From NCBI GenBank assembly GCA_942490825.1, contig CALNYG010000005.1, positions 198,240 through 262,239 of the forward strand: DNA of 64,000 nt, given 5' to 3'. Under the pieces are notes generated by a model. That model saw only the letters and a list, made by a program, of their open reading frames with translations. It was not told the origin of the DNA and did not search any database. Position 1 is the first letter of the stretch, and each line of letters opens with the position of its first letter. Source of the DNA: Candidatus Moraniibacteriota bacterium (lineage in GTDB: Bacteria; Patescibacteriota; Minisyncoccia; Moranbacterales; GCA-2747515). Made by a program: the position numbers and the translations under genes. Positions 9,686 to 60,671 of the stretch are shown here, piece after piece.

Positions 9686-9993
9686 TATAATTTTTTGAAG
9701 TGATGTATTTATGGTTTTGTGATTTTTTGTGGGGGATTCTTCACTGCATAAATTTTTTTTATAAAAAATTTATTGCGTTCAGAATGACAGTAAATTTTTT
9801 AGAATTTAGAAAAAGGTTAAATGGTGAAAAGCCCGTGCGGCGAGCACTTTATTTATTTTATGAAATTTTAATGGAGGGGCTTGCGTAAATTTTAAAAATA
9901 GTTTACTATATAGAGAGTATTAATTAACTAATTCTCGCGTAGGGTGGTAGGGTGGTAATTTAGTTTACGACTTTATTGCAGGATTAAATATAT

Positions 9994-11777: not shown

Positions 11778-12209
11778 ATGAAAATGAAAATTGTTACAAT
11801 TGGAAAGCCGAAGCGGGAATTTGAAGGTTTGTTTAATGAATATTTAAAAAGACTTTCGGGTTTTTGTTCAGCTCAGGTTGTGCATATTAAAGAAGGGAAA
11901 AATAATGATGCTCAGATTTTGAGTGAGATTGAGGGTTTTTATTCTGTTTTTTTGGATGAAAAAGGTAAGCAATTTTCGTCGGTTAAATTTTCGGATTTTT
12001 TAGAGAAAAAAAAGAATGAGGGGAATTCTAATTTTGTGTTTGTGATTGGTGGTCCGGATGGTCATTCTGAGGAAGTTAAGAAAAAGGCGGATTTGATTTG
12101 GTCGTTGAGTGAAATGACGTTTCCGCATGATTTGGCGATGGTGATGTTGGCGGAGGGTCTTTATCGGGTGGTTACGATTGGGGCGGGACATCCTTATCAT
12201 CGGGAATAG
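11778..12209 (+). CDS. rlmH: 23S rRNA (pseudouridine1915-N3)-methyltransferase RlmH
   Basis: MKIVTIGKPK .. FVIGGPDGHSEEV .. LSEMTFPHDLAMVMLAEGLYRVVTIGAGHPYHRE. Track start 11697 runs through an intergenic hairpin and was trimmed to ATG 11778. Confidence 0.9.
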   Translation: MKMKIVTIGKPKREFEGLFNEYLKRLSGFCSAQVVHIKEGKNNDAQILSEIEGFYSVFLDEKGKQFSSVKFSDFLEKKKNEGNSNFVFVIGGPDGHSEEVKKKADLIWSLSEMTFPHDLAMVMLAEGLYRVVTIGAGHPYHRE

Positions 12210-12348
12210 ATTGGTAGACTTGTAGAATGTTAGATGGTTAGATTTGTAGAGATATTGTTCTGTAATGTTTTAGGTTGAGTGAAAATTTTTAATTTACGTT
12301 TTTCTGATGTTTTAGTAGTTTAAATAATTTTTCAGTTTGGAAACGTTA

Positions 12349-12382
12349 CGGAATTAGTGGTCTTCGACACACTAATTCCGGC
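12349..12382 (+). repeat. Second copy of the CGGAATTAGTGGTCTTCGACACACTAATTCCGG palindromic element
   Basis: Near-identical to 10351-10383. Confidence 0.85.
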
Positions 12383-12419
12383 GACAAAAACTTTAAGTTT
12401 TCTTAAATCTTAAAGTATA

Positions 12420-12487
12420 GATACCGGATAGACGAATTTAAATCAATCACTTCGTTCTTGAATAAATTCTGTCTTCCGGCATGACAT
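12420..12487 (+). repeat. Half-copy (right arm) of the ~195-bp MITE
   Basis: GATACCGGATAGACGAATTTAAATCAATCACTTCGTTCTTGAATAAATTCTGTCTTCCGGCATGACAT matches 47741-47808. Confidence 0.8.
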
Positions 12488-12543
12488 GTCTGGGAATGTT
12501 GTGAAATTTGTAGAATTTAAAAATTCTAAATTTATGTATCATA

Positions 12544-12560
12544 GCCCGTGCGGCGAGCAC
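12544..12560 (+). repeat. GCCCGTGCGGCGAGCAC box (dispersed 17-mer, 14 copies in window)
   Basis: Copies on + at 9831, 12544, 15864, 21404, 26817, 31395, 40359 (GCCTG variant), 47864, 58490 and 60616 (..CAGGCAC variants) and 63099. Copies on - at 29516, 48533, 62249. A degenerate copy sits near 56237. Confidence 0.9.
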
Positions 12561-12587
12561 TTTATTTATTTTTAAATTTAAAATTAT

Positions 12588-14447: not shown

Positions 14448-14601
14448 TTTCTAACACAATGCAATAAAACTATAATAACAGTTAGTAACAATTTTGTAAA
14501 TATGTTAAAATTGGAATAGATTGATAGATCTTTAGACGTATAGATTATCAGAGATAAAACTTGTAATGACCATTGTTAATTTAAAGCTTGGTGATTTTCT
14601 G

Positions 14602-14681
14602 TGGGGGATTCTTCACTGCATAAATTTATCTGCGATAAATTTATTACGCCTGTCTGCCGACAAAGGCAGGTTCAGAATGAC
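14602..14681 (+). repeat. GGGGATTCTTCAC / hairpin / TTCAGAATGACA intergenic module
   Basis: Core copies at 9731-9789, 14602-14681, 15773-15829, 21476-21531, 26677-26776, 31252-31330 and 60510-60590 (+), and at 29560-29640 and 60405-60462 (-). The central hairpin is ATAAATTTATC-TGC-GATAAATTTAT or ATAAATTTTTT-TTAT-AAAAAATTTAT, with pairing kept by compensatory changes. Confidence 0.85.
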
Positions 14682-14716
14682 AGGAAATTTTTAGAGAATT
14701 ACATAAAAACAAAAAT

Positions 14717-15589
14717 ATGAAAATAGATCTTAGAAACAATATGTTAGATGAGGCTCAGCAAAAAAAGAGTCAAAAAGTTGGAATGTTCAACGGTCTTTTT
14801 GGTAACAAAAAAAAGATAAAAAAATTAGAAACACATGTAGAGCCTCTTAAAAAAATAGAAGCACCTAAAAAAATAAAAAAACTTTTAGAGCCAGAAGATT
14901 CTTTTCAGTTAAGCGAAGATCCAGGGATCGGACAATCAGATTTTCAATCTAAAAAAGAAGTTCAACAAGAAGAACAATTGCAAGAGCAAGAGCAAACACA
15001 AGATCAAAATCAGGAAGAAGCTATTGGAGAAAAAAATTTTAATCAGACAAAAGGAACTATTGAGCAGGATTATCAGCGAGATGTTGAATATCCTTATCAG
15101 AAAAGTGATTATATAGAAGAGTCACCTGAAAAGATTTTGATTAAGTGGCAAGGACCAGATCATGAAAGTTATCCAAAGAGTAAGAGATGGTATACAATTG
15201 CGGGGTTTGTTTTGGCGAGTTTAGTGACTTATGCAGTACTTACTAACAGCCCACTAACGGCGATTGTTTTTATTTTGATTGGTATTGTTGGGTATATGTA
15301 TTTGGAGAGGGATCCACAACTGACTGATTTTGCAGTTAGTTATGATGGTGTTGTGATTGGTAATGAAGTTTATGAATGGGATGATATGGTTTCTTTTTGG
15401 ATTTTTTATGATCCGCCTCATACTCGAGTTATTAGTTTACATATGAAAGGGAAGTTGATGCCTTATATTCATATTCCTTTGCATCAGATTGATCCAGTTG
15501 ATGTTCGTGAAAAAATGATGGAGTTTGTGCCAGAGATTAAACAGGAGCAGGGAATGGTGGATGTTTTGGAGCGGTTGTTGCATATGTAG
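14717..15589 (+). CDS. Hypothetical membrane protein with Q/E-rich N-terminus
   Basis: Two adjacent TM helices (YTIAGFVLASLVTYAVL / LTAIVFILIGIVGYMYL). No recognised catalytic motif. Confidence 0.5.
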   Translation: MKIDLRNNMLDEAQQKKSQKVGMFNGLFGNKKKIKKLETHVEPLKKIEAPKKIKKLLEPEDSFQLSEDPGIGQSDFQSKKEVQQEEQLQEQEQTQDQNQEEAIGEKNFNQTKGTIEQDYQRDVEYPYQKSDYIEESPEKILIKWQGPDHESYPKSKRWYTIAGFVLASLVTYAVLTNSPLTAIVFILIGIVGYMYLERDPQLTDFAVSYDGVVIGNEVYEWDDMVSFWIFYDPPHTRVISLHMKGKLMPYIHIPLHQIDPVDVREKMMEFVPEIKQEQGMVDVLERLLHM

Positions 15590-15896
15590 GAAATAGATGA
15601 TTAGATTTGTAGAGACATTGCACTGCAATCTCTCTGAACGAGTGAAATTTTTTTAATATGTTTATGTTGGCAGATAGACTTTCAAAAAGTGCAACATGTT
15701 ATTGCGAGGGAAGTGGGGTAATCTTAGTAAGTTTTTTTGATATTTTATTTTTGAAGCTTTGTGAATTTTTGTGGGAGATTCTTCACTGCGTAAATTTTTT
15801 TACAAAAAATTGACTTCGTTCAGAATAACGGGAAACTTTCATAAAAAATTGAATCTTTAAAAAGCCCGTGCGGCGAGCACATTTATTTTTTTAATA

Positions 15897-15925
15897 TTGA
15901 CCAAATTGTTTTTTAGCGATATTAT
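15897..15925 (+). promoter_or_regulatory. Sigma70-type promoter for tRNA-Arg (TTGACC-17-TATTAT)
   Basis: TTGACC 15897-15902 and TATTAT 15920-15925, about 24 nt upstream of the tRNA 5' end and 17 nt downstream of a GCCCGTGCGGCGAGCAC box. Confidence 0.6.
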
Positions 15926-15948
15926 ATTTTTAGTTATGTAAATAAAAA

Positions 15949-16021
15949 GTCCTTGTAGCTCAGTGGATAGAGCGTTTGGTTGCGGTCCAAAAGGTCGTAG
16001 GTTCGACTCCTACCAAGGACA
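15949..16021 (+). tRNA. tRNA-Arg (anticodon GCG)
   Basis: GTCCTTGTAGCTCAGTGGATAGAGCGTTTGGTTGCGGTCCAAAAGGTCGTAGGTTCGACTCCTACCAAGGACA folds as a canonical 73-nt cloverleaf. Anticodon loop TTGCGGT. Confidence 0.9.
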
Positions 16022-16241
16022 CAAATGTTAGACTTTTAGAATGTAGACAGTTAGATAGTTATTAATTTTGAATTTTAAATTTCAATTGAATGTAATAATT
16101 CTAAAATTTTCAAAACTTGTAGAGACGTCGATTTATCGCGTCTCTAAATGATTATCGATTGCTGATGACTTTTTAAATTAAATCTAAATAACTTAAAGGT
16201 ATCAAAAAAACCGCTAGTAACATAGCGGTTTTTTTAAGGCT

Positions 16242-16967: not shown

Positions 16968-16999
16968 TTTATTTTTTATAAATATTATTTAAGTTATTC

Positions 17000-17371
17000 T
17001 TAAGGTTTTAATTTAAAAATAGAGGCAGCTGATAATAAACATAATATTAATATTGGAGTAAAATTGTTTTGCCAAAGTCCTAGGGTTAAACCAAAAATAC
17101 TTATACTTGAAAGTGACATAATCTGAAAGTATTTTATTTGACTTATTTCATTATTCTTCATAATTTCTGGAATATATGAGTATGAAATAAAAATTATTAT
17201 TAAGGATAGGGTGAAAACTATGGCAAAGGGTATGTTGAATAAACTGTTAAAGTTTAAGGAAATGGGTATATTTTGTTGACTTATTGTAGAATATCCAACA
17301 ATGATATACATTATTGGAGCTATTATAGAGGCAAACCATAAGTGTTTAATTGGCATTTTTTGTTTATTCAC
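17000..17371 (-). CDS. Hypothetical small membrane protein
   Basis: Four predicted TM segments; AT-rich. Confidence 0.45.
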   Translation of the reverse strand: MNKQKMPIKHLWFASIIAPIMYIIVGYSTISQQNIPISLNFNSLFNIPFAIVFTLSLIIIFISYSYIPEIMKNNEISQIKYFQIMSLSSISIFGLTLGLWQNNFTPILILCLLSAASIFKLKP

Positions 17372-17482
17372 TTTTTTATTTTTAAATTGGTTACTTTTTT
17401 ATTATATCATAATTAGTTAAAAAAAATGTAATTAAATAATTTTTTAAGAATATCCAAGGGGTGGTCATTTAGTTAAAGAATG

Positions 17483-17510
17483 TTGACAAAACCTCATTTG
17501 TGCGTATAAT
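17483..17510 (+). promoter_or_regulatory. Sigma70-type promoter TTGACA-16-TATAAT
   Basis: TTGACA 17483-17488 and TATAAT 17505-17510, upstream of the surface-protein/sortase pair. Confidence 0.6.
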
Positions 17511-17560
17511 TTAACTTAATCTCTTTTATGGGATTTTTAATTTAGTTAATGATAGTTATC

Positions 17561-18562
17561 ATGAAAAAGGTTTTATTTTCAGGAATGATGTGTGCGGTAA
17601 TGATTGTTTTTTCGTTTGTGATTTCTCAGAAAGATGCTCAAGCTGGAGGTGGTTGGTCTGTTGAAAGTCGTTGCACTGTAGATGGTTGGCAGATGACTCA
17701 GTGTCCAAACCCAATTACAGATATTTTTTCAGATTGTTTTATTTTTTCTGGAGATGTTTTTAATCGAGGGGATCTAGTTTTAATTGTGGATACTATAAAT
17801 GGTGAGTGTCCTGTCTGCAGTAATAAAGTTATTGAAGAGTCAGAGGAGTGTGACGATGGAAATTTGCTAGATGACGACGGTTGTGATTCTGAATGTCAGT
17901 TGGAGCCTTTTTGTGGAGATGGTTATCTTGACGATAATGAAAAATGTGACGATGGAAATATAAATGACGGAGATGGATGTAATTCAACTTGTGAGATTGA
18001 AGAAGTCCTAGAAATTCCAGAAATTCCAGAAATTCCAGAAACTTTAGAAACTCTAGAAATTCCAGAAACTTTAGAAACTCTAGAAATTCCAGAAACTTCA
18101 GAAGATAATGATAAAAACAAGGACAAGGACAAAGACAAGGACAAGGACAAAGACAAGGACAAAAATAAAGAAGGCGACTTTCGAGTAAAAATCAAAACTT
18201 ATGATTGTAATGGAAATGAAGAAAGTAAAAAGATCCAAGGTTCAAAAGTAAAACTATATAAAAGTAGTGGAAAAAAAGCAGATGAAGATAAAACTAATTT
18301 TAAAGGAGAATCTAATTTTTACGATGTCAAAGAAGGGAAATACGAAGTAAAATGTGAAGTTCCTGGATACGTTAGTTTAAAAGATCGAAGTAAAGATTAT
18401 TACAAATCTGGATCAGAAAAAGTTAAAGATGGAAAAAGAGCTCATGAAACTTGTCATCTTATTAAGGCGAGTTGTGATGCAAATGTAAAAGTTGAAAAAT
18501 TAGCACAAACAGGTGGAAGCGTTAAAGATTTAATTCTAAGTATGTTTAATTTTATATTCTAA
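17561..18562 (+). CDS. Secreted Cys-rich-repeat surface protein with C-terminal LAQTG sortase signal
   Basis: Signal peptide MKKVLFSGMMCAVMIVFSFVISQKDAQA. Two CDDGN..DGC..C repeats of the Myxococcus cysteine-rich repeat type, then PEIPE/TLETLEIPE and DKDK tandem repeats. C-terminal LAQTG is followed by a hydrophobic tail. Track start 17549; the second ATG at 17561 is preferred. Confidence 0.7.
   Translation: MKKVLFSGMMCAVMIVFSFVISQKDAQAGGGWSVESRCTVDGWQMTQCPNPITDIFSDCFIFSGDVFNRGDLVLIVDTINGECPVCSNKVIEESEECDDGNLLDDDGCDSECQLEPFCGDGYLDDNEKCDDGNINDGDGCNSTCEIEEVLEIPEIPEIPETLETLEIPETLETLEIPETSEDNDKNKDKDKDKDKDKDKDKNKEGDFRVKIKTYDCNGNEESKKIQGSKVKLYKSSGKKADEDKTNFKGESNFYDVKEGKYEVKCEVPGYVSLKDRSKDYYKSGSEKVKDGKRAHETCHLIKASCDANVKVEKLAQTGGSVKDLILSMFNFIF
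18011..18165 (+). repeat. In-frame tandem repeats (GAAATTCCA / GAAACTTTAGAAACTCTAGAAATTCCA units, then AAGGACAAGGACAAAGAC units)
   Basis: Direct reading. They encode the EIPEIPEIPETLETLEIPETLETLEIPE and DKDKDK.. tracts. Confidence 0.9.
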
Positions 18563-18590
18563 ATAAAATTTTATATATACAAAATGCCCC

Positions 18591-19367
18591 GTGAATTTTT
18601 TTAAGTTTGCGGGGCGTTTGTTTAAAAGTATTAATATTAAAAATATGTTTAAAATTTTAAATATTAAAAAAATTAATCTAAAAAGTTTTAAAAATAATAA
18701 ATTTATTTTTGCTTTATTTTCAATTTTTATTATAACTATTTCTTTTTTGTTATGGAAAAACATTGATGATAAAAGATTTGAAGAAGAAAAAACGGATAAT
18801 ATTAAACAGGAAAGAATTTTATTAGAAGAAGAATTGAAAAAAGCGGAAGAAATAGAAATAAAAAAAGAAGAATTAAAAAGAGAAGAAATAGAAGTTAGAG
18901 GTGAAGAAGAAACAGTTTATGGGGAATTGGGAGATTTTTGGATAGAAATTGATACGGATGATTTGAAAATTAAAGCTCCAATATTTGAAGGGATAAGTGG
19001 GACAAATAAAAATAAGGACAATAATATTTTAGATAAGGGCGTTGGTCATCATACTACAACTGCTTTTCCAAATGGGGAAAGCGGAAATGTGGTTCTCTCG
19101 GGTCATCGTTGGTTTCCGGGTGATCTTCCGGCGAGAACGGTTTTTATAGATTTGGATAAGTTGAAAGTTAATGATCGAGTTAGATTGTATTTTGATGGGG
19201 AGGAATTTGTGTATAGAATTACTGGTCAAAAAGTGATTAAGGATACTGAAACGTATATTTTGGATCAAACGGAAAAGGCTACGATTACTATTTATACTTG
19301 TACGCCGAAATATCCTTTGGTTACGCCGACTGATAGATTGGTTTATTTTGGGGAATTGGTTAAGTAG
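18591..19367 (+). CDS. Sortase (transpeptidase) with N-terminal membrane anchor
   Basis: Catalytic triad context: VVLSGHRW (His), ITIYTCTP (TLxTC-like Cys), TDRLVY (Arg). Lies immediately downstream of the LAQTG protein. Confidence 0.8.
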   Translation: MNFFKFAGRLFKSINIKNMFKILNIKKINLKSFKNNKFIFALFSIFIITISFLLWKNIDDKRFEEEKTDNIKQERILLEEELKKAEEIEIKKEELKREEIEVRGEEETVYGELGDFWIEIDTDDLKIKAPIFEGISGTNKNKDNNILDKGVGHHTTTAFPNGESGNVVLSGHRWFPGDLPARTVFIDLDKLKVNDRVRLYFDGEEFVYRITGQKVIKDTETYILDQTEKATITIYTCTPKYPLVTPTDRLVYFGELVK

Positions 19368-19473
19368 GTTATTTTAGTTTTCTTGAAGTTTTTGTGTGGG
19401 GAATATTTCTGGGTTTGGGAATTTGTGGAAATAAAAAGCTATCATTAATTCGATAGTTTTTTGTTTTATGGGC

Positions 19474-19622
19474 TTGACAAGGTTTTTATTCTGTGCTATT
19501 ATTTGGTGTTACGGTATGAGATTGATTAATTTCTATTGGGATGGAAATATGGTTTTTTCTTAATTTTGCAAACTGTCAGATATTATTTAGAGCTTGACAA
19601 AATTAATAAGATATGCTATAAT
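19474..19622 (+). promoter_or_regulatory. Cassette 1 tandem promoters P1 (TTGACA-17-TATTAT) and P2 (TTGACA-17-TATAAT with TGC extended -10)
   Basis: P1 19474-19502; P2 19594-19622. A near-identical copy is at 20386-20534 and a diverged copy at 30939-31086 (-). Confidence 0.75.
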
Positions 19623-19815
19623 ATTTTTATACGATAAGAAATTAAATGTGATTTGTAATTGTAATGTTGTTCTTTGAGATATTTTCATTTTTTCTTCTAT
19701 TTTATTGATTTTTTTGTTCTATATTCAGAAAGTTAAGTTTTAGTTTTTTGAGTTATAGGACAGAAAACAATGATAAATGCAGTGAGATAATATCAATATA
19801 CTGCGGAGAGAAAAG

Positions 19816-20130
19816 ATGAAAGATATTATTATCGATCAACATCTAGGAAAAACAGATTTAAATGAACTTTTGGTTGATTTTATGACCAAAGTTCATGAAA
19901 AGATGTTTAAGGACAATGGCAGGCCAGATGATCTGCGATTTCAGCTTCCCGTTGATGAGACGGGATGCACGGCTGAGCATATTTTAGGGATGCTTCAGTC
20001 CCTTGTAAATCAAGGGCATATCGCTCTTGTTGAGGACGGTGATGACCAGGAAAAAATGCAGAAATTGGCTATAGAAATGGCAACATTTGCGGCTGTTCTG
20101 TATGATCGAGCAGCTGCGAATTTTGAATGA
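19816..20130 (+). CDS. Cassette 1 cargo: hypothetical acidic 104-aa protein
   Basis: RBS GGAGAG 7 nt upstream of ATG. No family recognised. Confidence 0.6.
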   Translation: MKDIIIDQHLGKTDLNELLVDFMTKVHEKMFKDNGRPDDLRFQLPVDETGCTAEHILGMLQSLVNQGHIALVEDGDDQEKMQKLAIEMATFAAVLYDRAAANFE

Positions 20131-20385
20131 GCCGTTTTTAACCTTGTCGTAGGGAACACAATACAAGGAAAGTTCTTTTTGAAAAAAAATAGTTATGGAG
20201 ACCTACGCCATGACTACTCACTTTTTTACTAATCTTAAAAAAATTAGTAAAAAAGTTAAACTTTAAGGTTGAATCAATGTCAATGTACGATTCAACCTTA
20301 GTAATTAAGCATTTCAAATTAAATTTTGGAATATTTATAATAATAAAAAACTATCATTTATTTGGTAGTTTTTTGTTTTATGGGC

Positions 20386-20534
20386 TTGACAAGGTTTTTA
20401 TTCTGTGCTATTATTTGGTGTTACGGTATGAGATTGATTAATTTCTATTGGGATGGAAATATGGTTTTTTGTTAATTTTGCAAACTGTCAGATATTATTT
20501 AGAGCTTGACAAAATTAATAAGATATGCTATAAT
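20386..20534 (+). promoter_or_regulatory. Cassette 2 tandem promoters P1 and P2
   Basis: P1 TTGACA 20386-20391 / TATTAT 20409-20414. P2 TTGACA 20506-20511 / TGC-TATAAT 20526-20534. Confidence 0.75.
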
Positions 20535-20723
20535 ATTTTTATACGATAAGAAATTAAATGTGATTTGTAATCGTAATATTGTTCTTTGAGATATTTTCAT
20601 TTTTTCTCTGGTTTATTGATTTTTTTGTTCTATATTCAGAAAGTTAAGCTTTAGTTTTTTGAATAATAGGACAGAAAAATAAACAATAAAAAGTGCGGTT
20701 GAAATACACTGCGGAGAGAAAAA

Positions 20724-21131
20724 ATGGGACGTTGGTGTCATAGTGGTGGAAACTCGGATGGATACGATGAGATTTCTTTCAAAGAGCTTGGAAATGGGGT
20801 TTCTATTTCCATTGACTCTTTTGAGGGTGCTGTTTCTCCCAATTACGGGTGCAGAGAAGATGTTACGCAACAAATGTTGCATATAGTAAATTCTCTGGGA
20901 AAAAATCGGTTGAGAGCAGAGGATTGGCCTTCTCGTATGGAATGTATGATGAAGGCTGTCATGAAATATTGGTTTTTGCCTACGGTAGATCGGGCGTTGT
21001 ATCAAGCTACTGGATGTGGCTACGACACCGGAATGGGTAGAAGCATAAAAAGATGTCCAAAATGTCGATCTCTTTGGAAAAATAGGGATCGAAAAATATT
21101 TGAGCATCAGCGAAAGACATATGTAGGATAA
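20724..21131 (+). CDS. Cassette 2 cargo: hypothetical 135-aa Cys/Trp-rich protein with C-terminal CPKC motif and basic tail
   Basis: Same RBS block ACTGCGGAGAGAAAA as cassette 1. Preferred over the overlapping ORFs on both strands because of the RBS and promoter orientation. Confidence 0.55.
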   Translation: MGRWCHSGGNSDGYDEISFKELGNGVSISIDSFEGAVSPNYGCREDVTQQMLHIVNSLGKNRLRAEDWPSRMECMMKAVMKYWFLPTVDRALYQATGCGYDTGMGRSIKRCPKCRSLWKNRDRKIFEHQRKTYVG

Positions 21132-21743
21132 CCCTACTTAACAGGAGGACGGAACTCAACGAAGTATCGTTCCTCCTCCTCACTTTCTTACTAATCCTAA
21201 AAAGATTGGTCAAAAAGTTGAGAATAAAAAACTATCATTTATTTGGTAGTTTTTTGTTTTGGTTGGGATTGTATTTATAGTTTTCTTAAAATTTCAAAGT
21301 GAAGATTTCGGATAAATTAATTTCTATCTATAAAACGCGATAAATCGACGTTTCTACAAAAAAATATATTTTCCGGAATGACAGGGATGAGAGATGATGA
21401 AAAGCCCGTGCGGCGAGCACTTTTTAAAATATTAGAAAAATTTATACTGTATTTGTAGTATCAGAAAAACTTACTGGGATTCTTCACTTCATAAATTTAT
21501 CTGCGATAAATTTATTACGTTCAGAATGACGTGGTGGGAGAAATTGACTTTTCTGCTTTAAAATGCGAAAATTAAAATAGTAATTTATTAATTAGAGAAA
21601 TTAGTTTTTTGGCTATGAAGATACATATGCGTTTCATTTAATTTTATTAGAAAATGTATATGTAGATTTATAGCGATTCGTTTAATTTAGAAACGCGATG
21701 AATCGCGTTTCTACAGAAATAAAAATTATTTTTCTTAACAAAT

Positions 21744-23948: not shown

Positions 23949-25401
23949 TGTCACTTACCAATGATAATGTCATACCAGGTTACCAATAGAAATGTCATAC
24001 CTATTAAAATTATGTTAGTTTTACATGTTAACATTTAAAAAACATGAAAAACTATGCAAGATACAATAATCATGACAAATAAGGAATCTCAAAGGTATGA
24101 AATCATAAATAATTTAATAAACAATAAGATAAACGGAACACAAGCATTCAGACAATTAAATTTATCAGTCAGACAAACTAAAAGGTTAAAAGCTAAAGTA
24201 AACAGAAAAGGAATACAAGGAATAATTCATAAAAGCAGGGGGAAAGAAAGTAATAGAAAATTAGATGAAAAATTAAAAAAGAAAATCATAAAAACAATCA
24301 AAGAAAACTATTCAGATTTTTCATCACAATTAACTTATGAAAAATTAAATGAAGTTCATGAAATTAAAATAAGTTACACTTCGACGAGAAGAATTAGAAT
24401 AAACGAAGGTTTAAGTACAGTCAAAAAAAGAAAACAAAATAAAAAATACTTCTCACAAAGAGAAAGAAAAGAACATTATGGAGAATTAGTTCAATTCGAT
24501 GGTTCATATCATGATTGGCTTGAAAATGAAGAAGAGCAATGCCTGTTACTTGCAGTAGACGATGCTACTAGCGAGATAACTCCAGAACTTGATAAAAATG
24601 AAGGTATACAAGCAGTATTTAATTTTTGGAAAGAATACGTACAAGAAAAAGGAAGACCATTAGCTATTTATCTAGATAAATTCAGTACTTACAAAGTAAA
24701 TCACAAAAATGCAACGGACAATCAAGAATTCAAGACACAATTTCAAAGAGCTATGAAAGAATTAGATATACAAGTAATTTTTGCTAATACGCCTCAAGCC
24801 AAGGGAAGAGTAGAAAGAATGAACGAAACTTTACAAGACAGAATGATCAAAGAAATGCGACTAGCTAAAATAAATAGTATCGAACAAGCCGATGAATTTA
24901 TTAAAGAAAAATTTACTCCAGAATTTAATAAAAAATTCAATGTTCCCGCAAAGAAAAAAGGAGACCTACACAGAAAACTAACTAAGCAAGAAAAAGATAA
25001 ATTAAATAATATTTTCTCAATTAAAAGCACTAGAAAAATAAGGAATGATTTTGTAGTTCAATATAAAAATAGATATTTTCAATTAAATGAAATACAACCA
25101 ACTACAGTTTACAAAAAGGATGAAGTAATTATAGAAGAACATTTAGATGATTCAATTCATATTTCTAAAAAAGATAAATATTTAAGTTTTAAAGAATTAC
25201 CACATAAACCCAAAAAAGAAAATGAACTAAAATTACCAGCTATCACTAAAAGAAAATCAGATTACACTCCACCAGCAGATCATCCTTGGAGAAGCTACCA
25301 ATTTAAAAAAGAAAAATTAAAAGCTCAAAAATTAATTAAATTCTAAAGGTATGACATTTCTAAAGAAAACAAAGGTATGACATTTCTATTGGTAGTTGAC
25401 A
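23949..25401 (+). mobile_element. Intact insertion sequence, ISNCY/IS1202-like (rve-type DDE transposase), 1453 bp
   Basis: Terminal IRs TGTCACTTACCAAT / TGTCAACTACCAAT (12/14). Subterminal repeats AATGTCATACC occur twice at each end. A perfect 15-bp direct repeat GTTTTTTTGATTGAC flanks it at 23934-23948 and 25402-25416. Confidence 0.85.
24054..25346 (+). CDS. DDE (rve/integrase-core) transposase with N-terminal HTH
   Basis: LVQFDGSYHDW (D), IYLDKFSTY (D), AKGRVERMNETLQDR (E). Confidence 0.85.
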   Translation: MQDTIIMTNKESQRYEIINNLINNKINGTQAFRQLNLSVRQTKRLKAKVNRKGIQGIIHKSRGKESNRKLDEKLKKKIIKTIKENYSDFSSQLTYEKLNEVHEIKISYTSTRRIRINEGLSTVKKRKQNKKYFSQRERKEHYGELVQFDGSYHDWLENEEEQCLLLAVDDATSEITPELDKNEGIQAVFNFWKEYVQEKGRPLAIYLDKFSTYKVNHKNATDNQEFKTQFQRAMKELDIQVIFANTPQAKGRVERMNETLQDRMIKEMRLAKINSIEQADEFIKEKFTPEFNKKFNVPAKKKGDLHRKLTKQEKDKLNNIFSIKSTRKIRNDFVVQYKNRYFQLNEIQPTTVYKKDEVIIEEHLDDSIHISKKDKYLSFKELPHKPKKENELKLPAITKRKSDYTPPADHPWRSYQFKKEKLKAQKLIKF

Positions 25402-25514
25402 GTTTTTTTGATTGACTTTAAGTGAGTTGTTTGATAAGTTTAAATATCTGGCAATCTGGTCAGATATGGTTAAGGACGTTATTTAAATTTAAATATGTTT
25501 GTGAGAGGATAATT

Positions 25515-25730
25515 ATGAAGATAAGTCTCAATAATTATGTTTTTGTTCAACTTACTGATTATGGTAAATCAGTTTGTAGGGATTATTATAATAAGTATGG
25601 GCAAAAAGCGCCCAGTCTTGAAGGAAAAGTTAAGTTTCTTTTATGGGAGCTTATGAAAATTTTTGGTGAAAAATGTTATCAAGGCAATACTAATGTGTTT
25701 AAAGACTGTTTAATTGAAATTGAAAATTGA
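25515..25730 (+). CDS. Small hypothetical protein (71 aa)
   Basis: ATG at 25515 preceded by GAGAGGA. The track's longer 25422 start lacks support. Followed by terminator hairpin ATTCCGCAA..TTGCGGAATTTTTT (about 25755-25800). Confidence 0.45.
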   Translation: MKISLNNYVFVQLTDYGKSVCRDYYNKYGQKAPSLEGKVKFLLWELMKIFGEKCYQGNTNVFKDCLIEIEN

Positions 25731-25843: not shown

Positions 25844-26524
25844 ATGGAAAAAACTACACAACAATTAAAGAAAGAATATCCACCAAAAGTCTATAAAATA
25901 AAAGACAAAATAAATTTTGTTATAACTGCAATATTATTATTAGAAATAGTATTCGCACTTTTTCGAACTGAATGGATGGTATTATTTATCACAACAATAA
26001 CTCTAATCCTAACTCTGTCAGTTCAACTGGTTACCAAAAAAACCAGTAGTTTTATCTATATTCCCGAAGAACTTCAAATAGCAACTGTTCTTTTTATTTT
26101 CGCAACTTTATTTCTCGGAGAAATTCACGGATATTACGAATCATTTTGGTGGTGGGATTTAGTTTTACATGCAGGTTCGGCAATTGTTTTTGGATTTATT
26201 GGGTTTATAATTTTACTAGTTTTACAAAGAGGAGGGCGAGTCGAAGCAAAAGCATTTTGGTTGGCAATTTTTTCTTTTAGTTTTGCGATGGCAATTGGTG
26301 TTGTGTGGGAGATTTTTGAATTTACTGCTGATCAACTCTTTGATTTCAACATGCAAAAGTCAGGCTTAGTTGATACGATGTGGGATTTGATTGTTAATTC
26401 ATTGGGCGCTTTATTTGCGTCATTTTTTGGATTCTTATATTTAAAAGGAGAGGATAAGTTTTCTTTTGCTGTATTGATGAGCGAGTTTATTAAAAAGAAT
26501 CCACGATTTTTTCGAGATAGATGA
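25844..26524 (+). CDS. Hypothetical polytopic membrane protein
   Basis: About six TM helices; WWWDLVLHAGSA and WEIFEFTADQ motifs. Family not confidently recognised. Confidence 0.5.
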   Translation: MEKTTQQLKKEYPPKVYKIKDKINFVITAILLLEIVFALFRTEWMVLFITTITLILTLSVQLVTKKTSSFIYIPEELQIATVLFIFATLFLGEIHGYYESFWWWDLVLHAGSAIVFGFIGFIILLVLQRGGRVEAKAFWLAIFSFSFAMAIGVVWEIFEFTADQLFDFNMQKSGLVDTMWDLIVNSLGALFASFFGFLYLKGEDKFSFAVLMSEFIKKNPRFFRDR

Positions 26525-26596
26525 ATAGATCGGTAGACTTTTAGAATATAGACAGTTAGATTGTGTAGAGACATTGCACTGCAATGTCTTGGAAAT
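26521..26596 (+). repeat. 3'-end module: TAGA-rich tract plus GTAGA-flanked palindrome (GTAGAGACATTGCACTGCAATGTCT)
   Basis: Starts at the stop codon of the upstream gene. Related copies begin at about 12207, 15587, 16024, 31100, 39795, 53815, 56072, 57681, 59314 and 60299. Confidence 0.85.
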
Positions 26597-26722
26597 AGGC
26601 AAAAAATTTTCAATCTCCGATGGGACTCGAAGACATGTTTACGAATTTATAATTTTAAAGTTTTATGATTTTCTGTGGGGGATTCTTCACTTCATAAATT
26701 TATCTGTGATAAATTTATTACG

Positions 26723-26764
26723 CCTGTCTGCCCTGTCTGCCGACAGGCAGGCGACAAAGGCAGG
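26723..26764 (+). repeat. Self-nested mini-hairpin CCTGTCTGC[CCTGTCTGCCGACAGGCAGG]CGACAAAGGCAGG
   Basis: Single copies lie at 14648-14669, 29571-29595 (-) and about 60556-60580. It is inserted at other positions at 31261-31280 and 62367-62387. A larger relative is at about 8324-8374. Confidence 0.8.
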
Positions 26765-26925
26765 TTCAGAATGACATGATACTTATAGAGTTTCAAAAAA
26801 TGTTGAATGGTGAAAAGCCCGTGCGGCGAGCACTTTTTATCTTTCTGACTAATTTTATATTTTTTAAGAAAGAATATGCTATAATAATAATATTAAAAAA
26901 TATTCTTAAAAACTAAAATAAAAAT

Positions 26926-29435: not shown

Positions 29436-30004
29436 TCGGTTGTTTGTAAAGGGTAATAGGTAATGGTAACACTGGGTTTTTTTTGTGTCAAATTTTTTTA
29501 TTTTTAATGTTTTTTGTGCTCGCCGCACGGGCTTATGATACATAATTTTAAAAACTTCCTGTCATTCTGAACCTGCCTTTGTCGGCAGACAGGCGGATTT
29601 ATTTTTTTGTTAGAAAAAATAAAGAAGTGAAGAATCCCCTACGGATTATCATAAATCTTTAAAATTAAAATATCAGAAAAACTTATTGAGATTGCCACGT
29701 CTCTCCTTATAGTCGTTCCTCGCAATGACGTGTATAAAAACAAAAAACCACTGACTTTATGTTAGTGGTTTTTTATACTCTATTAAAATTCAAATTAGTT
29801 TAAATTTTAAATTGAGTGGCTTTATCTATATCGTGTTAGATAAAGCCGTGATGAATCTTTGTTCATCGTTGATTTTTTGCGTTTACACGTAACGCTTTTC
29901 TCTCTAATTTTTTTAAGAATTAGAGAGTGGGTGAGAGGAGAACATATAACAAATAATTATCATCCTCTTCCTCTCCTTTGTTTTTTGAAAAGAGTTTAAG
30001 AGAT

Positions 30005-31086: not shown

Positions 31087-31542
31087 GCTTTGAAAATAGA
31101 CGTTTAGTATTTTAGATGGGTAGACTTTTAGACAATTAGATTTGTAGAGACATTGCACTGCAATGTTTTTGGGTAGATTGATAATTTTATGTAACGAAGA
31201 ATTTCAGTGAGTTTTTCTAATATTTAATTTTCAAGTTTTGTGATTCTCTGTGGGGGATTCCTGTCTGCCGACAGGCAGGCTTCACTGCGTAAATTTTTTT
31301 TATAAAAAATTTACTTCGTTCAGAATGACAGAAAATTTTTTAGGGGTTCGCAGTAGAAATGAATTGCAATTCATTTCTATAGATGTGTATCATAGCCCGT
31401 GCGGCGAGCACTTTATTAATTTTTAAAATTTTCATTTATCATACGGATAGGCACGAGACATTATTTTAAAATTTATTTTGAAAGTTTTGATTAAATGTTA
31501 TACTTTTAAAGTAACTATAATTTTTTCAATTTTAATAAAATC

Positions 31543-40349: not shown

Positions 40350-40404
40350 TTTTAAAAAGCCTGTGCGGCGAGCACTTTTATTTTTTAAATTAAAATTAAT
40401 CATC

Positions 40405-41817
40405 ATGGAAATTATTTTGGCTTATGTTAAAAAATTGATTCCGAAGAAGTTGTTTAAAAAATTACAACCGATTTATCATTATGTTTTTAACTTTTTGGCA
40501 GCGGTGGTTTATGGTTTTCCGTCTAATAAATTGATTGTGGTTGGGGTTACGGGGACGACGGGGAAGACGACGACGACTTTTATGATTGCGGAAATGTTGA
40601 AAAATGCTGGGGTGAAGGTGGGGTATACTTCGACGGCGATGTTTGGTGATGGGGAGACGGAGCGATTGAATGATAAGAAAATGACGATGTTGGGGCGGAT
40701 GTTTACGCAGAATATGATTTCGCGGATGGTGCGGAATGGTTGCGAGGTGGCGATTATTGAGACGACTTCGGAGGGGGCGGTGCAGTTTCGGCATCGGTTT
40801 ATTAATTATGACATGATGGTTTTCACGGGGATTTATCCTGAGCATATTGAATCGCACGGAAGTTTTGAGAATTATAAAAAAGCGAAAATTGAAATTTTTA
40901 AGCACTTGAAGATTTGCGGAAAGAAGGACTTGAATTTGTTAAATGGTAGTGAAGAGAAAATTAAAAAGACTTCTATCATTGATGGTGATGATGAATTTGC
41001 TGGGGAATTTTTGGAACCTTGGGCGGAGGAGAAAATTGTTTTTAGAAATGTTGCGGAAGCAGTGGTCTGTCGACACACTACTTCCGGCGAAAATTCCCGG
41101 GTTGAAAATTTCCAACCCCTACAGGATAATGACGTGTCTTTTGTGAATTATAAATTTAGGGAAATTAATAATGTTGGGGTTAAATTTGATTTTGATGGTG
41201 AGGAGATTCAGATGAAAATTTTGGGTGATTTTAATTCTAAAAATGCGACGATTGCTGGTGCGGTTGGTTTGGCTTTAGGATTGAATAAAAGGCAAATTAG
41301 GTCTGGATTGGAAAAAGTTGTGGGGATTCCTGGGCGTTTGGAACGGATTGATGAGGGTCAGGATTTTACGGTGATTGTGGATTATGCGTTTGAACCGGTG
41401 GCGGTTGGTAAGCTTTATGATATGGTTGGGAATTTGGATCATGAAAAAATTATTCATGTTTTGGGTAGTGCGGGTGGGGGTCGTGATATGGCTCGGCGGG
41501 AGATATTGGGTAAGTTGGCTGGTGAAAAAGCGGATTTTGTGATTGTTACGAATGAGGATCCGTATGATGAGGATCCGATGGAAATTATTAAAATGGTAGC
41601 GGATGGTGCGAGAAACGTTGGTAAGGTTGAAGATGATAATTTATTTTTAATTGAGGATCGTGGAGAGGCGATTGAAAAGGCGATTGGTTTGGCGAGGGAA
41701 GGTGATGTGGTTTTGATTACGGGGAAGGGTTCGGAACAGGCGATTGTGGTTGGGAATGGGAGGAAGGTTATGTGGGATGATCGGGATGTTGTTAGGGAAG
41801 TTTTGAGAAAGATGTAA
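40405..41817 (+). CDS. murE: Mur ligase, MurE-type (UDP-MurNAc-L-Ala-D-Glu : diamino acid ligase)
   Basis: P-loop VGVTGTTGKTTT, FNSKNATIA, DYAFEP (DYAHTP equivalent), NEDPYDEDP (DNPRxEDP equivalent). The track start 40363 runs through the repeat box and was trimmed to ATG 40405. Confidence 0.85.
   Translation: MEIILAYVKKLIPKKLFKKLQPIYHYVFNFLAAVVYGFPSNKLIVVGVTGTTGKTTTTFMIAEMLKNAGVKVGYTSTAMFGDGETERLNDKKMTMLGRMFTQNMISRMVRNGCEVAIIETTSEGAVQFRHRFINYDMMVFTGIYPEHIESHGSFENYKKAKIEIFKHLKICGKKDLNLLNGSEEKIKKTSIIDGDDEFAGEFLEPWAEEKIVFRNVAEAVVCRHTTSGENSRVENFQPLQDNDVSFVNYKFREINNVGVKFDFDGEEIQMKILGDFNSKNATIAGAVGLALGLNKRQIRSGLEKVVGIPGRLERIDEGQDFTVIVDYAFEPVAVGKLYDMVGNLDHEKIIHVLGSAGGGRDMARREILGKLAGEKADFVIVTNEDPYDEDPMEIIKMVADGARNVGKVEDDNLFLIEDRGEAIEKAIGLAREGDVVLITGKGSEQAIVVGNGRKVMWDDRDVVREVLRKM
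41044..41136 (+). repeat. Intergenic-type palindromic repeat inserted in frame inside murE
   Basis: AGAAATGTTGCGGAAGCAGTGGTCTGTCGACACACTACTTCCGGCGAAAA.. aligns with the intergenic copies AGAAACGTTTCGGAATCAGTGGTCTTCGACACACTAATTCCGGC (10341-10384) and 12340-12384. It encodes RNVAEAVVCRHTTSGENSRVENFQPLQDNDV. Confidence 0.8.
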
Positions 41818-42339: not shown

Positions 42340-43612
42340 AGCTAAGTATTGAAATTTGTTAAATTCTATGCTTAAATATTAAGTTATTTTAATAATTTAA
42401 TATTTTAAAAATGCAAAAAAAAGAGATTAAAAAAATATTCAATTTAGAAGGATATATTTTAGATAAATTTGAAGAAAAAAATGATAAAATAATTTTACAT
42501 TGTCATTTACAAAAAGAATTCATTTAAATTAATAAAAGAGCTAAGTCAAATAATTAATAATAACAGATATAGAATAATTGCTCATTCTATGTTTGAAAAT
42601 ATAATAGTTTTTATAGCTATGACTCAAAGAAGATTTTATTTTTCTAAACATAAAAAGAAACTTCGGGAATCTTTACCTCAAGTTAAAAAAGGGCAACAAA
42701 TGAGCACAGCTTTTAAAAAACTCTGTCATAGAATTAAGAGAAACCACATATAGCGGACTAGCTAGATCTAGACAGATAAGCATTATGTCGGCTCTGAGAA
42801 TGATTGATGAAATGGTAAATACTTCATTAATTTGAGATAAATCTATTCAAAGAATTGGAATGGATGGCAAAGGAGTTAGCAAAAGAAAACAAGTTTTTAA
42901 CATTACTAATTTAATTGATAATGAGGTGATAGGTGTTCTACCAAATTTATCACAAAAAGAATTGCTGAAAGAATTATTAAAAATTGATTTAAAATTTAGA
43001 TTAGCAGTTAAAGAAGTATGTATTGATATGGACTCTTTTTTTCCAGCTATTATTAAAGAATGTTTTCCTAATGCGGTTATTGTGATTGATCATTTTCATA
43101 TAATTCAGTGGGCTGTCTTTTTATTAAAAGAACAAAAGAAAGTTTTTCAAGACATCAACAATGAATCTTATAAAATAAATAAATTACTGATGATACCTAC
43201 ACACAAATTAACAATTGAAGAATTTAATAAATTAGAAAAAGTTTTTGTTAAAGTTCCTAAGTTAAAACAAAGTTGGAAAATAATTCATCAACTCAGAAAA
43301 GTATATTGGAAAAATAACAGAAAAGAAGCTCAAAAACAATTAAAATATGTCATCAGTCTTTGTAAAACTTCAGAATCAAAATATATGAAAGATTTGGCTA
43401 ATACATTAACAAGATGGTTTGATGAAATATTAAATTATTATTTATCTAAAACAACTAATGCTTATACTGAAGGAATTCATAATCATTTTGAAAGAATTAA
43501 AAGGAATCATTTTGGGATTAGAAATGTTGAACGTTTTTGTAAAAGATTATTATTTTGTGTTCTTCCGATGACAATTTTCTTAAATTTAGTTGCCCAAAGA
43601 TGTTAAAGAGCC
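42317..43612 (+). mobile_element. ISL3-family insertion sequence, copy A (decayed), 1296 bp
   Basis: 23-bp perfect terminal IR GGCTCTTTAACATCTTTGGGCAA. 8-bp target duplication GTAATTTA at 42309-42316 and 43613-43620. Confidence 0.9.
42412..43606 (+). pseudogene. ISL3 transposase pseudogene (copy A)
   Basis: The N-terminal part is broken by stops and frameshifts (MQKKEIKKIFNLEGY..QKEFI*). The C-terminal 248 aa are intact (42860-43606) with VIVIDHFHIIQ and TNAYTEGIHNHFERIKRNHFGIRNVERF motifs. Confidence 0.85.
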
Positions 43613-43617
43613 GTAAT

Positions 43618-44502: not shown

Positions 44503-44579
44503 GAAATTATACGTGAATTATTACAGATAAATTATCAGAGTAAGAATAATTTAAGATTTTATTTAAGTCAAGTGAATTG

Positions 44580-47547: not shown

Positions 47548-47613
47548 ATTTTTATTGGGAAGAATTATTTTTTTAGTGATTTTATTATAGCATAAGCAAA
47601 AAAGTCTAAATGT

Positions 47614-47808
47614 ATGTCATCTCGGAAAATATATTTTCTTTTCGAGTGTGGCGAGAAATTAGAAAATAATTTATCCGTGATCCAGAAATTTTAAAATCAT
47701 AATTAAATTTTGGAGTTTAGTTTTTTGCTGGTAGTTTCTGGATACCGGATAGACGAATTTAAATCAATCGCTACGCTCTTGAATAAATTCTGTCTTCCGG
47801 CATGACAT
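47614..47808 (+). mobile_element. ~195-bp MITE, copy 1 (termini ATGTCAT..ATGACAT)
   Basis: Aligns over its full length with 48803-48999 (+) and 62316-62530 (-). Imperfect terminal IRs ATGTCATCTCGGAA / ATGTCATGCCGGAA. Confidence 0.8.
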
Positions 47809-47942
47809 GTCTGGGAGTTGACTATGAATTATTGTAGGAATTCAAAATGCTGAATGGTGAAAAGCCCGTGCGGCGAGCACTATTTTTTTATTTAATTTTT
47901 TAAACATGTTATAATTTAACTGTAATTTAATAAAATAAAACT

Positions 47943-48524: not shown

Positions 48525-48591
48525 TTATTTTTGTGCTCGCCGCACGGGCTTTTTGGGAGGGGAGTTTTAAGCAATAATTTAAAAAATATTT

Positions 48592-48759: not shown

Positions 48760-48802
48760 TTTTTAAATAAAAAATTCAGTTATTTTCTGAAGTCTTTTAA
48801 AT

Positions 48803-48999: not shown

Positions 49000-49056
49000 T
49001 ACGGGAGATTTTTTAAAATAAAAACATTCTAATTTCTCAATTCTAAATTCACCAAA

Positions 49057-56069: not shown

Positions 56070-56306
56070 ACAGGTAGATTTTTAGAGTAGTAGATAATTA
56101 GACCTGTAGAGACATTGCACTGTAATGTTTTGAGATGGGAGAATAATTTACAAATTTGCAATCTTCAAATAGTGTGACTTGCTATTTTAAAATGACAGTA
56201 GATTTTTTAGGATTTCAAAAAATGTTAAATGGTGGAAAGCTTATGCGACGAACACGTTTATTTTTATAAATTTAATTTTTTATTTTTAAATAAATCCTGC
56301 TAGTGA

Positions 56307-60301: not shown

Positions 60302-60641
60302 GATAGAAGAATAGATTTTTAGAGATGTAGACAATTAGATTTTGTAGAGATATTGCATTGCAATGTCTTGTGAATAAGTAATTTTTAATTTTCAAATAAT
60401 ACAGCCTGTCATTCTGAGTGGAATGAAATTTTTGTAAAAAATTTTATGTAACGAAGAATCCCAATAAGTTTTTCTGATATTTTAGTTTTTAAGTTTTGTG
60501 ATTCTCTTTGGGAGATTCTTCACTTCATAAATTTATCTGCGATAAATTTATTACGCTTGTCTGCTGACAAAGGCAGGTTCAGAATGACAGGAAAATTTTA
60601 AAATTATGTATCATAGCCCGTGCGGCAGGCACTTTATTTAT

Positions 60642-60671
60642 TTGACAGTTAGGGCTGAAAAATGGTATTAT
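60642..60671 (+). promoter_or_regulatory. Promoter TTGACA-18-(TGG)TATTAT upstream of nusA
   Basis: TTGACA 60642-60647 and extended -10 TGGTATTAT 60663-60671, 10 nt downstream of a GCCCGTGCGGCAGGCAC box. Confidence 0.6.

Follow-up and report, generated by a model that had tools for sequence, protein, structure and literature searches.

A probable polar mosaic of REP-type palindromic repeats in the intergenic spacers of a Moraniibacteriota genome

The bacterial interspersed mosaic elements (BIMEs) of Enterobacteria are extragenic arrays of alternating palindromic units, the repetitive extragenic palindromic (REP) or PU units, with integration host factor (IHF), gyrase and Pol I as partners. Pneumococcal BOX elements (boxA-boxB(n)-boxC) and neisserial Correia elements are short intergenic ordered modules or foldbacks able to affect transcript ends. 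Published work assigns BIMEs and REPs roles in transcription attenuation, mRNA 3′-end protection and topological insulation. GTAG REPs combine a terminal GTAG with a 5–13-bp stem and a short loop, show complementary changes and G-T pairs, adjoin the 3′ ends of open reading frames (ORFs) and can donate TAG stop codons (Di Nocera 2013, PMC3733652). For CGTC REPs, the published description gives an 8–9-bp stem starting with AT, a 4–5-nt loop, a 3-nt tail and mainly head-to-head dimers, and includes neisserial dRS3 and rickettsial RPE-4 and RPE-6. REP doublets forming hairpins (REPINs) are known from systems with a REP-associated tyrosine transposase (RAYT), a Y1 HUH transposase (Bertels & Rainey 2011, PMC3116915). 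We compared with these systems a cassette of ordered repeat modules that fills the spacer 26521–26925 and recurs in other spacers of a 64,000-nt stretch, here called the window, from Candidatus Moraniibacteriota bacterium (contig CALNYG010000005.1). Moraniibacteriota belong to the Patescibacteria/Parcubacteria group of the candidate phyla radiation (CPR).

In the flagged spacer, all parts of the cassette read on the plus strand. A (TAGANNNN)×7 tract (26518..26564) overlaps the TGA stop codon (26522–26524) of a DUF2238 gene and is followed by module B (26565..26589), a GTAG-tagged palindrome, GTAGAGACATTGCAcTGCAATGTCT, with a predicted REP-like hairpin (−13 kcal/mol, z = −3.3). Next come a AAAAAATTTTCAAT linker block (26601..26614) and the beta linker TTTTATGATTTTCTGTGG (26661..26678), the conserved 5′ flank of the right-hand unit; a weakly conserved 'ATTTTCAAATAAT' is found after B in several copies and in both relatives described below. 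The right-hand unit itself (26679..26776) is a TGTC-tagged REP unit composed of GGGATTCTTCAC (E), the nested hairpin F1 (26691–26722), an inserted cluster of mini-hairpins (~26723–26764) and TTCAGAATGACA (H), and its minus strand is the tagged, better-folding one. The I1 linker AATGTTGAATGGTGAAAA (26799..26816), which ends in an A-run, leads to the J box GCCCGTGCGGCGAGCAC (26817..26833) with stem GTGC/GCAC and loop GGCGA; on the reverse strand J reads GCUCG-CCGCA-CGGGC and continues into a U-run. Outside the repeat, TGCTATAAT (26877..26885) is an extended −10-like promoter of the downstream gene (ATG 26926).

Sequence comparison makes it probable that REP-type palindromic repeats here form a polar mosaic of the BIME kind, and that the cassette would provide hairpin punctuation between transcription units. 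Its left part would be a tandem (TAGANNNN)n tract ending in a GTAG REP hairpin. The middle would consist of one unit or a head-to-head pair of TGTC/CGTC REPs with loops enlarged by nested hairpins and 20-nt mini-hairpins, where paired units would amount to a foldback of 130–190 bp with terminal inverted repeats, resembling REPINs and miniature inverted-repeat transposable elements (MITEs). In the right part, a short TAG-tagged hairpin (or a linker) would lead through an A-run to the 17-nt J. We observed a recurrent anatomy, a fixed order of parts, conservation of structure, turnover at orthologous sites and spread of the middle unit across phyla. By their tags and predicted stems the modules fit the GTAG- and CGTC/TGTC-tagged REP superfamilies (PMC3733652). 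The components are those of known repeat superfamilies; what appears to be new is the head-to-tail order in one fixed polarity, the reiteration of the TAGA tag in tandem, and the expanded loops together with a lineage-specific J. A literature search gave no paper on repeats in Moranbacteria, CPR or Patescibacteria, and hence no description of such elements there, and no quotation of the shell sequence of the middle unit.

The window is AT-rich (~30% GC) with a strong positive GC skew, its plus strand holds most of the genes, and its proteins include the bacterial PolA, PNPase, NusA, SpoU methylase and type IV secretion system (T4SS)-pilin-like proteins. It is syntenic with contig JAGLWU010000020 of the metagenome-assembled genome (MAG) 'Candidatus Moraniibacteriota bacterium RS_12_31' at a DNA identity of 75–88%. 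Orthologous spacers were compared with two loci of the related MAG (L016 and L071) and with a third relative, the 7.4-kb Logan contig L074. The first-pass annotation had listed six spacers with a common module order (12207–12587 as a variant, 15587–15948, 26521–26925, 31095–31542, 56070–56306 as degenerate and 60299–60815). All six hold the modules at the places given, with counts of J and of TAGA tracts far above those of shuffled sequences, and the list can be extended by 9716–9847, 14517–14682, 21370–21530, 29516–29730, 47613–47880 and single elements. Independent repeat finding recovered families D2–D18, which are the same families as the modules described here. Repeated DNA accounts for ~4.5 kb of the window (~7%), and at least one module is present in 15 of the 41 spacers of at least 100 bp.

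Order and orientation were counted in the window and ~250 kb of the related genome, whose copies were retrieved via an exact match to J. At 17 of 18 loci the next element after the block TTTGTGATT..GGGATTCTTCAC-hairpin-TTCAGAATGACA (beta-E-hairpin-H) is a J of like orientation (p = 8e-10 against an expectation of 25%), which confirms the fixed order and polarity that had been proposed. The cassettes also follow the orientation of genes, as had been suggested: of 54 J boxes, 44 point the same way as the gene downstream (p = 3e-6), and the sole complete cassette on the minus strand lies between two minus-strand genes.

The first module consists of a tandem 8-nt repeat, TAGANNNN, in 4–8 units that run into GTAG and the palindrome, and its 8-nt period places TAG in all three frames. 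The window has 8 tracts of at least four units, where shuffled sequences have 0.1 on average, and 19 are present in the ~300 kb that include the relative. They had been described as often beginning at or overlapping the stop codon; 10 of 19 start at most 18 nt from a co-oriented stop, and the remainder do not, some lying in divergent spacers, with the upstream-side ORF on the opposite strand for 6 of 19. Palindrome B has a 10–11-bp stem and a 1-nt centre. We aligned 14 copies from the window and the loci of the related MAG: GTAG (G4 T5 A6 G7) is invariant, 96.8% of cells in the 11 pairs are paired compared to 32–51% with the partner slid, both sides have changed at 4 pairs (11 cells), and G-U pairs occur at 5 pair positions, every one on the gene-sense strand. 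Orthologous B in the relative (AACGTAGCAaTGCTACGTT versus GACATTGCAcTGCAATC/GTC) differs at three compensatory pairs, and single copies fold at −12 to −13 kcal/mol (z −3.3 to −4.6). The proposed palindrome is borne out as a hairpin, and the G-U pattern suggests that it forms in the sense RNA.

Judged by these features module B is a GTAG-tagged REP that has the defining characters of the superfamily, namely a terminal GTAG, a 10–11-bp stem, a very short loop, complementary stem changes and G-T pairs; about half of the tracts before it lie near ORF 3′ ends, where TAG at times supplies or overlaps the stop codon. It differs from published GTAG REPs in that (i) the tag is reiterated as (TAGANNNN)4–8, (ii) the units are mostly single and co-oriented instead of forming dimer pairs, (iii) no RAYT was detected in 319 kb by a motif search, itself a weak one, and (iv) the host is a CPR bacterium, outside the eight phyla reported. 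Other subfamilies of GTAG plus hairpin, with different stems, are present at 11701, 31353, 37465 and 12510. In L074 (7230–7290, reverse strand) a TAGA-type tract in opposite orientation (..CTATCTACTAGTCTAAAAATCCAACCATCTATTCC..) lies between J and the promoter of the DHH gene; the orientation of the tract can thus be inverted.

The middle unit has the marks of a CGTC/TGTC REP. On its tagged strand, the other strand of E–H as written above, 31 local copies read (T/C)GTC-ATTCTGAA...TGAAGAAT-CCC, with a TGTC or CGTC tag, a stem beginning with AT, a 3-nt CCC tail and head-to-head pairing; as read from the sequence, the stem includes a tandem G-A mismatch. 'GTAACGAAGAAT', which had been counted as a separate module, is really the end of an inverted copy of the GGGATTCTTCAC-hairpin-TTCAGAATGACA unit. 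The arrangement is clearest at 60404–60589, where two E–H units face each other over an asymmetric linker (alpha, AATAAGTTTTTCTGATATTTTA; beta, TTTTGTGATTYTCTGTGG) and are bounded by a 13-bp terminal inverted repeat, CCTGTCATTCTGA. At least eight such head-to-head pairs with conserved alpha/beta linkers were found, and single right-hand units are at least equally common. With CGTC/TGTC REPs the unit shares its tag, AT-start stem, 3-nt tail, head-to-head pairs spaced by 20–100 bp, occurrence within genes and broad phyletic distribution. The local units differ in the loop of 25–75 nt with a nested hairpin in each, compared to the published 4–5 nt, in the tandem G-A mismatch of the stem, and in being joined in fixed order to the lineage-specific J.

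The shell GGGATTCTTCAC-N25-55-TTCAGAATGAC is present in at least 120 metagenome contigs of 31–68% GC with a different inner hairpin in each; the unit is therefore a repeat shared across phyla, not one peculiar to this genome. Some of the metagenomic shells, such as those of L098 and L102, have a 4–5-nt loop, and short-loop versions were seen there only. Of the copies of the unit, 92 of 118 metagenomic and 25 of 31 local ones fold better on the tagged strand; from the sequence this strand could form a continuous helix with tandem G-A pairs, and the other strand has pyrimidine mismatches. A mini-hairpin of 20–22 nt, CCTGTCTGCCGACAGGCAGG, has insertion points that vary from copy to copy: within GGGATTC^TTCAC at 31260, and ahead of TTCAG at 14649, 26723, 29,59x and 60556. 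It is always immediately 5′ of TTCA, with no duplication visible. Viral contigs gave three matches to the E–H shell and one to J and are uninformative.

As a whole, the cassettes resemble BIMEs as extragenic mosaics of REP units in alternating orientation, with conserved linkers, between transcription units. Beyond the GTAG tag there is no sequence relation to BIMEs; the cassettes join two REP superfamilies and J in one fixed polarity, have nested-hairpin loops and carry a tandem 8-nt TAGA tract before the first hairpin. With BOX and Correia elements they share the format of short, non-coding intergenic repeats built of ordered modules or foldbacks. However, sequence similarity is lacking, the host phyla are others and BOX modules are not tagged REP hairpins; the TA target duplications and the defined promoter and IHF sites of Correia elements were not found here. 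Features of MITEs are the terminal inverted repeats (13 bp at 60404–60589), a length below 500 bp, the absence of coding sequence and presence or absence at orthologous spacers. The suggestion of the first-pass annotation that the modules are not random MITE debris is not supported, in view of their fit to the GTAG and CGTC/TGTC REP superfamilies, the terminal inverted repeats, nested insertions, presence/absence and swapping, and the presence of the middle unit in widely differing metagenomic genomes. Integron attC sites, CRISPR repeats, sigma-54 promoters, ribozyme cores and K-turns (C/D-like CUGA/GUGAAGA) were considered and dropped for want of a recognisable match to their consensus features.

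Modules are shared by the related MAG and L074, and they are gained, lost and swapped at orthologous spacers. At the flagged spacer the window has TAGA×7, B, beta, E, F1, G, H, I1 and J; the MAG (L016/L071) has TAGA×8, B and the linker, with E–J absent; and L074 has a short tract, no palindrome, I2 and a degenerate J. A TGnTATAAT promoter, corresponding to TGCTATAAT, and the leader are retained in all three genomes, with or without E–J. The promoter consequently belongs to the gene and not to the repeat, and the AT-rich promoter region that had been included as the last part of the cassette has to be removed from it: sequences after J differ between copies and are not repeated. After the gene for a 290-aa protein, a cassette is present in both genomes with the nested hairpin swapped (F2 versus F1). 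The promoter (TTGACC-17-TATTAT) and gene of tRNA-Arg(GCG) (15949–16022) follow J in the window; the orthologous stretch of the MAG (L016 ~660–760) has J cut to AAAGCCCGT and no tRNA-Arg gene. The pnp leaders of the three genomes contain one shell, GGGATT...AATGA(C/T), with three unrelated inserts.

This turnover bears on the proposal that the cassette is a purpose-built terminator–insulator–promoter unit that recurs between operons and runs from a terminator to promoter elements. Fixed polarity, the hairpin at the stop-codon end, the co-orientation of J with the downstream gene (44/54) at 0–60 nt before promoter-like hexamers and its perfect conservation at three orthologous sites are what such a unit would predict, but modules are gained, lost, swapped and nested, the sequence after J is unrepeated and the promoter distance variable, the L016/L071 spacer without E–J still has its promoter, the central unit is a cross-phylum repeat, and 26 of the 41 spacers are module-free. 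We regard this proposal as quite unlikely.

Comparison of copies and of orthologous sites indicates that J, the last box in the cassette order, is the most constrained piece. The 17-nt sequence has 13 matches in the window at ≤3 mismatches, 10 of them exact, compared to 0.00 in 100 shuffles. Of 56 copies, 55 lie between genes. J is identical at 17/17 positions upstream of SpoU (two genomes), upstream of the DHH gene (three) and in the pnp leader (two), and the 5′ flanks at these three sites are different repeat modules or unalignable. Identity of J next to genes just 75–88% identical points to purifying selection on J or to homogenisation among copies. At two of five orthologous sites J is lost or degenerate. 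Among the matches listed, J is multi-copy in one species representative; the other matches are single, lie in GC-rich genomes and are chance-like. Promoter-like hexamers are located 0 to ~60 nt downstream of J at varying distance. In seven cases an oppositely oriented J lies 5–19 nt past a stop codon, where the gene strand shows an A-run, GTGCTCGCCGCACGGGC and T4–5, and a simple terminator scan flags the reverse strand of J (5 pairs, 4 of them GC, and a T-run). An A-run precedes J in 45 of 56 copies, one A in the copies of the relative being forced by the search pattern, and a T-run follows in 32 of 56.

From these properties one could conclude that only J is functional, as a DNA site read by a protein, for instance the site of a global regulator or roadblock upstream of promoters, the recognition hairpin for a recombinase or transposase, or a signal of the kind used in DNA uptake, and that the rest is accumulated repeat DNA. 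We judge this unlikely. The exactness of 10 of 13 window copies, the identity of orthologous J in up to three genomes amid unalignable 5′ flanks, the GTGC-N5-GCAC dyad, the strong orientation bias and the multi-copy occurrence in one species representative only, among the matches listed, suit a protein site; the −35 distance of 0 to ~60 nt means that J is not a fixed-geometry operator, reversed copies adjoin stop codons in a terminator-like manner, the intergenic, oriented placement is unlike that of known uptake sequences, loss or degeneration affects two of five orthologous sites, and no candidate binding protein was found.

Three more specific assignments of J were rejected. (i) J with TTTATTTA as an archaeal BRE/TATA promoter, an idea that came from tRNA-Arg(GCG) and the 27-nt distance to one ATG, does not agree with the bacterial genes (PolA, PNPase, NusA) and with J-to-start distances of 27 to 340 nt. 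(ii) A −35 element or fixed activator site does not agree with the variable spacing to promoter-like hexamers. (iii) An uptake sequence of the DUS/USS (DNA uptake sequence/uptake signal sequence) type would account for over-representation, but not for 55 of 56 intergenic copies with strong orientation. Rather unlikely, in our estimate, is a more far-reaching role, in which J would be a cis element that is present lineage-wide, works in one orientation and is kept by purifying selection immediately ahead of Moranbacteria promoters, acting as a stop signal for backward (divergent or antisense) transcription or as a site for a global DNA- or RNA-binding factor, and the (UAGANNNN)n tract beside the GTAG hairpin would be a multimeric, HutP/TRAP-like protein-binding array that tunes termination at many gene ends.

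In unrelated genomes, the exact 18-mer AGCCCGTGCGGCGAGCAC forms tandem duplicates within local repeats (L005 3150–3240, L044 7180–7270, L064 200–290). The hosts are Oscillospiraceae, Propionibacteriaceae and an Actinomycetota MAG, with TGTCA directly after the 18-mer in both actinobacterial cases. These duplicates may be due to chance in GC-rich DNA or may represent a distant repeat family with the same motif.

The GTGC/GCAC stem is retained in every J variant, with a compensatory GTAC/GTAC in L074, and G-U pairs of J variants lie on the J-sense strand. Together with the T-run after J in 32 of 56 copies, the conserved nested hairpins and a −10-like TATGAT/TGTGAT conserved in the beta linker, for which the promoter scan found CTGATA-17-TATGAT in one copy, these features would be expected if the cassette, or its beta-E-H-I-J part, comprised small structured RNA genes with a promoter in the alpha/beta centre and termination at J and the T-run. 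A conserved promoter in the alpha/beta centre was nevertheless rejected, as the −35 spacing differs among copies while the −10-like motif is conserved. For E–H, the opposite strand is the better-folding one in 25 of 31 local copies, the J hairpin is no stronger than those of shuffles, and the E–H shell occurs in other metagenome contigs without beta or J. Rfam covariance scans (gathering threshold and E ≤ 1) returned no match to the cassette, and tRNAs alone reached the gathering score. We consider the RNA-gene explanation very unlikely.

If the cassettes are polar REP mosaics, their pieces could persist and spread as non-autonomous repeat DNA by means of a putative trans-acting enzyme, gene conversion or both. 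In the sense RNA, the GTAG palindrome would fold into a 3′-end hairpin or attenuator. On the opposite strand, J would form a short GC stem followed by a U-tract and could halt backward transcription from the downstream promoter region, and a reversed J may directly terminate a gene. GTAG hairpin and J together would insulate the spacer from both sides.

Several points weigh against the mosaic reading and this mechanism. Series of same-orientation, head-to-tail units are rare among published REP families, and loops of 25–75 nt are outside the published 4–5-nt definition of CGTC REPs. The motif-level search of the 319 kb (window and relatives) found no ORF with the HUH...Y motif of a Y1/RAYT-like transposase, and the three-way comparison of alignable orthologous spacers gave no definable target-site duplication or clean empty site. 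Often merely 2–5 T follow the GTAG hairpin, which makes its terminator activity uncertain, and J alone folds no better than shuffles (z = −0.1 to −1.0). The exactness of J in the relative is ascertainment-biased, owing to retrieval by exact match. Finally, 79% of genes follow the GC skew, and all five window cassettes in divergent spacers point one way. Gene orientation is consequently inseparable from replication orientation, an attempt to separate the two through local GC skew gave no resolution, and the confounding leaves room for a strand-specific insertion mechanism.

CPR bacteria and Patescibacteria are usually called streamlined, yet ~7% of the window is repeated DNA, much of it polar REP-type hairpins. 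If the mosaic reading is true, the GTAG and CGTC REP superfamilies extend into the CPR, and REP loops can be landing pads for nested hairpins. The 17-nt box, unchanged at orthologous sites amid 5′ turnover, would be a tractable element that could show how tiny genomes punctuate transcription. For annotation, such spacers, as well as in-frame insertions such as that in a Mur ligase gene, should be treated as repeat DNA.

The further cassettes of the window vary in completeness. On the plus strand, beta-E-hairpin-H-I1-J occupies the divergent spacer upstream of rpsO (9716..9847). The variant cassette at 12207..12560 (+) has TAGA×6, a B variant, other hairpin repeats, I2 and J; it also holds the right half of a 190-nt TGTCAT..ATGACA element and a GTAG mini-hairpin before I2, and its J lies 27 nt before the SpoU ATG. 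A partial cassette (14517..14682, +) consists of TAGA×4, beta and E-F1-G-H and has no J. At 15590..15880 (+), B, a short CGTC-type left unit, alpha/beta, E-F2-H and J are followed by the promoter and gene of tRNA-Arg. The copy in the pnp leader (21370..21530, +) is permuted, with H2 and J placed before reversed alpha and E-F1-H. The complete minus-strand cassette (29516..29730) comprises a CGTC left unit, alpha, E, hairpin, G, H, I2 and J, and lies upstream of the DHH gene promoter. Upstream of polA (31097..31411, +), TAGA×7, B, the end of a left unit, alpha/beta, E, F2, H, a GTAG mini-hairpin, I2 and J are found, and here the G hairpin sits within E. A degenerate cassette (56075..56255, +) retains TAGA×5, B, the linker, I1 and a decayed J, GCTTATGCGACGAACAC. 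The fullest one, upstream of nusA (60304..60632, +), has TAGA×6, B, the head-to-head REP pair, I2 and a J variant, GCCCGTGCGGCAGGCAC. Single J boxes stand at 40359, 58490 and 63099, and single palindromes at 39803 and 53829.

The LemA gene (47943–48524) is preceded by a 190-nt TGTCAT..ATGACA foldback with I1 and J (47613..47880, +) and followed, 9 nt after its stop codon, by a reversed J (48533..48549, −), where the gene strand reads GTGCTCGCCGCACGGGC+TTTTT and is terminator-like. The gene thus lies between inverted J boxes (47864+, 48533−). Farther out, within 47613–49000, the gene is bracketed by two direct copies, 91% identical, of the ~190-nt foldback, which ends in ATGTCATCTCGGAA...TTCCGGCATGACAT and has partial copies at 12390–12490 and 62239–62531.

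Within the Mur ligase gene (ORF 40363–41817), repeat hairpins are clustered in frame at 41004–41110. The cluster is made up of the hairpin family CGGAAG..CTTCCG, a GTAG hairpin in reverse orientation (GGGTTGAAAATTTCCAACCCCTAC) and AATGACG, and the 200-position Mur_ligase_M profile is matched over 240 residues. The insertion resembles the intragenic REP/RPE insertions reported in Rickettsia.

The only transposase genes of the window are two ISL3-family DDE transposase fragments in opposite orientation (ORFs 42860–43606, +, and 44927–45406, −) within 42423–45830. They flank a metallophosphatase gene in a stretch of 24–27% GC with reversed skew and long inverted repeats (42423+/45765−), and the region is probably a decayed composite insertion sequence (IS) or island. 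Two segments of the window differ from the MAG: the 4.4 kb of 16968–21402 are missing from it, and between pnp and the DUF2238 gene (window 24054–25730 compared to L071 8107–9887) the minus strand of the MAG encodes a DNA methylase and a restriction enzyme of Eco47II type, in place of which the window has unrelated plus-strand ORFs. The DUF2238 membrane protein (25844–26524) is 83–84% identical to two Moranbacteria relatives ('Candidatus Moranbacteria bacterium', 84%); the next-closest homologues are ~50–55% identical, and many of those with a source name are labelled archaeal (Pacearchaeota, Woesearchaeota, Nanoarchaeota), a pattern of similarity that hints at gene exchange between CPR and DPANN. 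A 294-nt direct repeat (19421–19714/20333–20626, 93% identical) flanks a 104-aa ORF, and both copies contain a pair of sigma-70-like promoters at or near consensus, TTGACA-17-TATAAT and TTGACA-17-TATTAT. In-frame coding minisatellites with periods of 9 nt (..CCAGAAATT..) and 12 nt (CAAGCAGTAACC) are present at 17977–18112 in ORF 17549–18562 and at 56791–56898 in the T4SS-pilin-like ORF 56307–57404, respectively.

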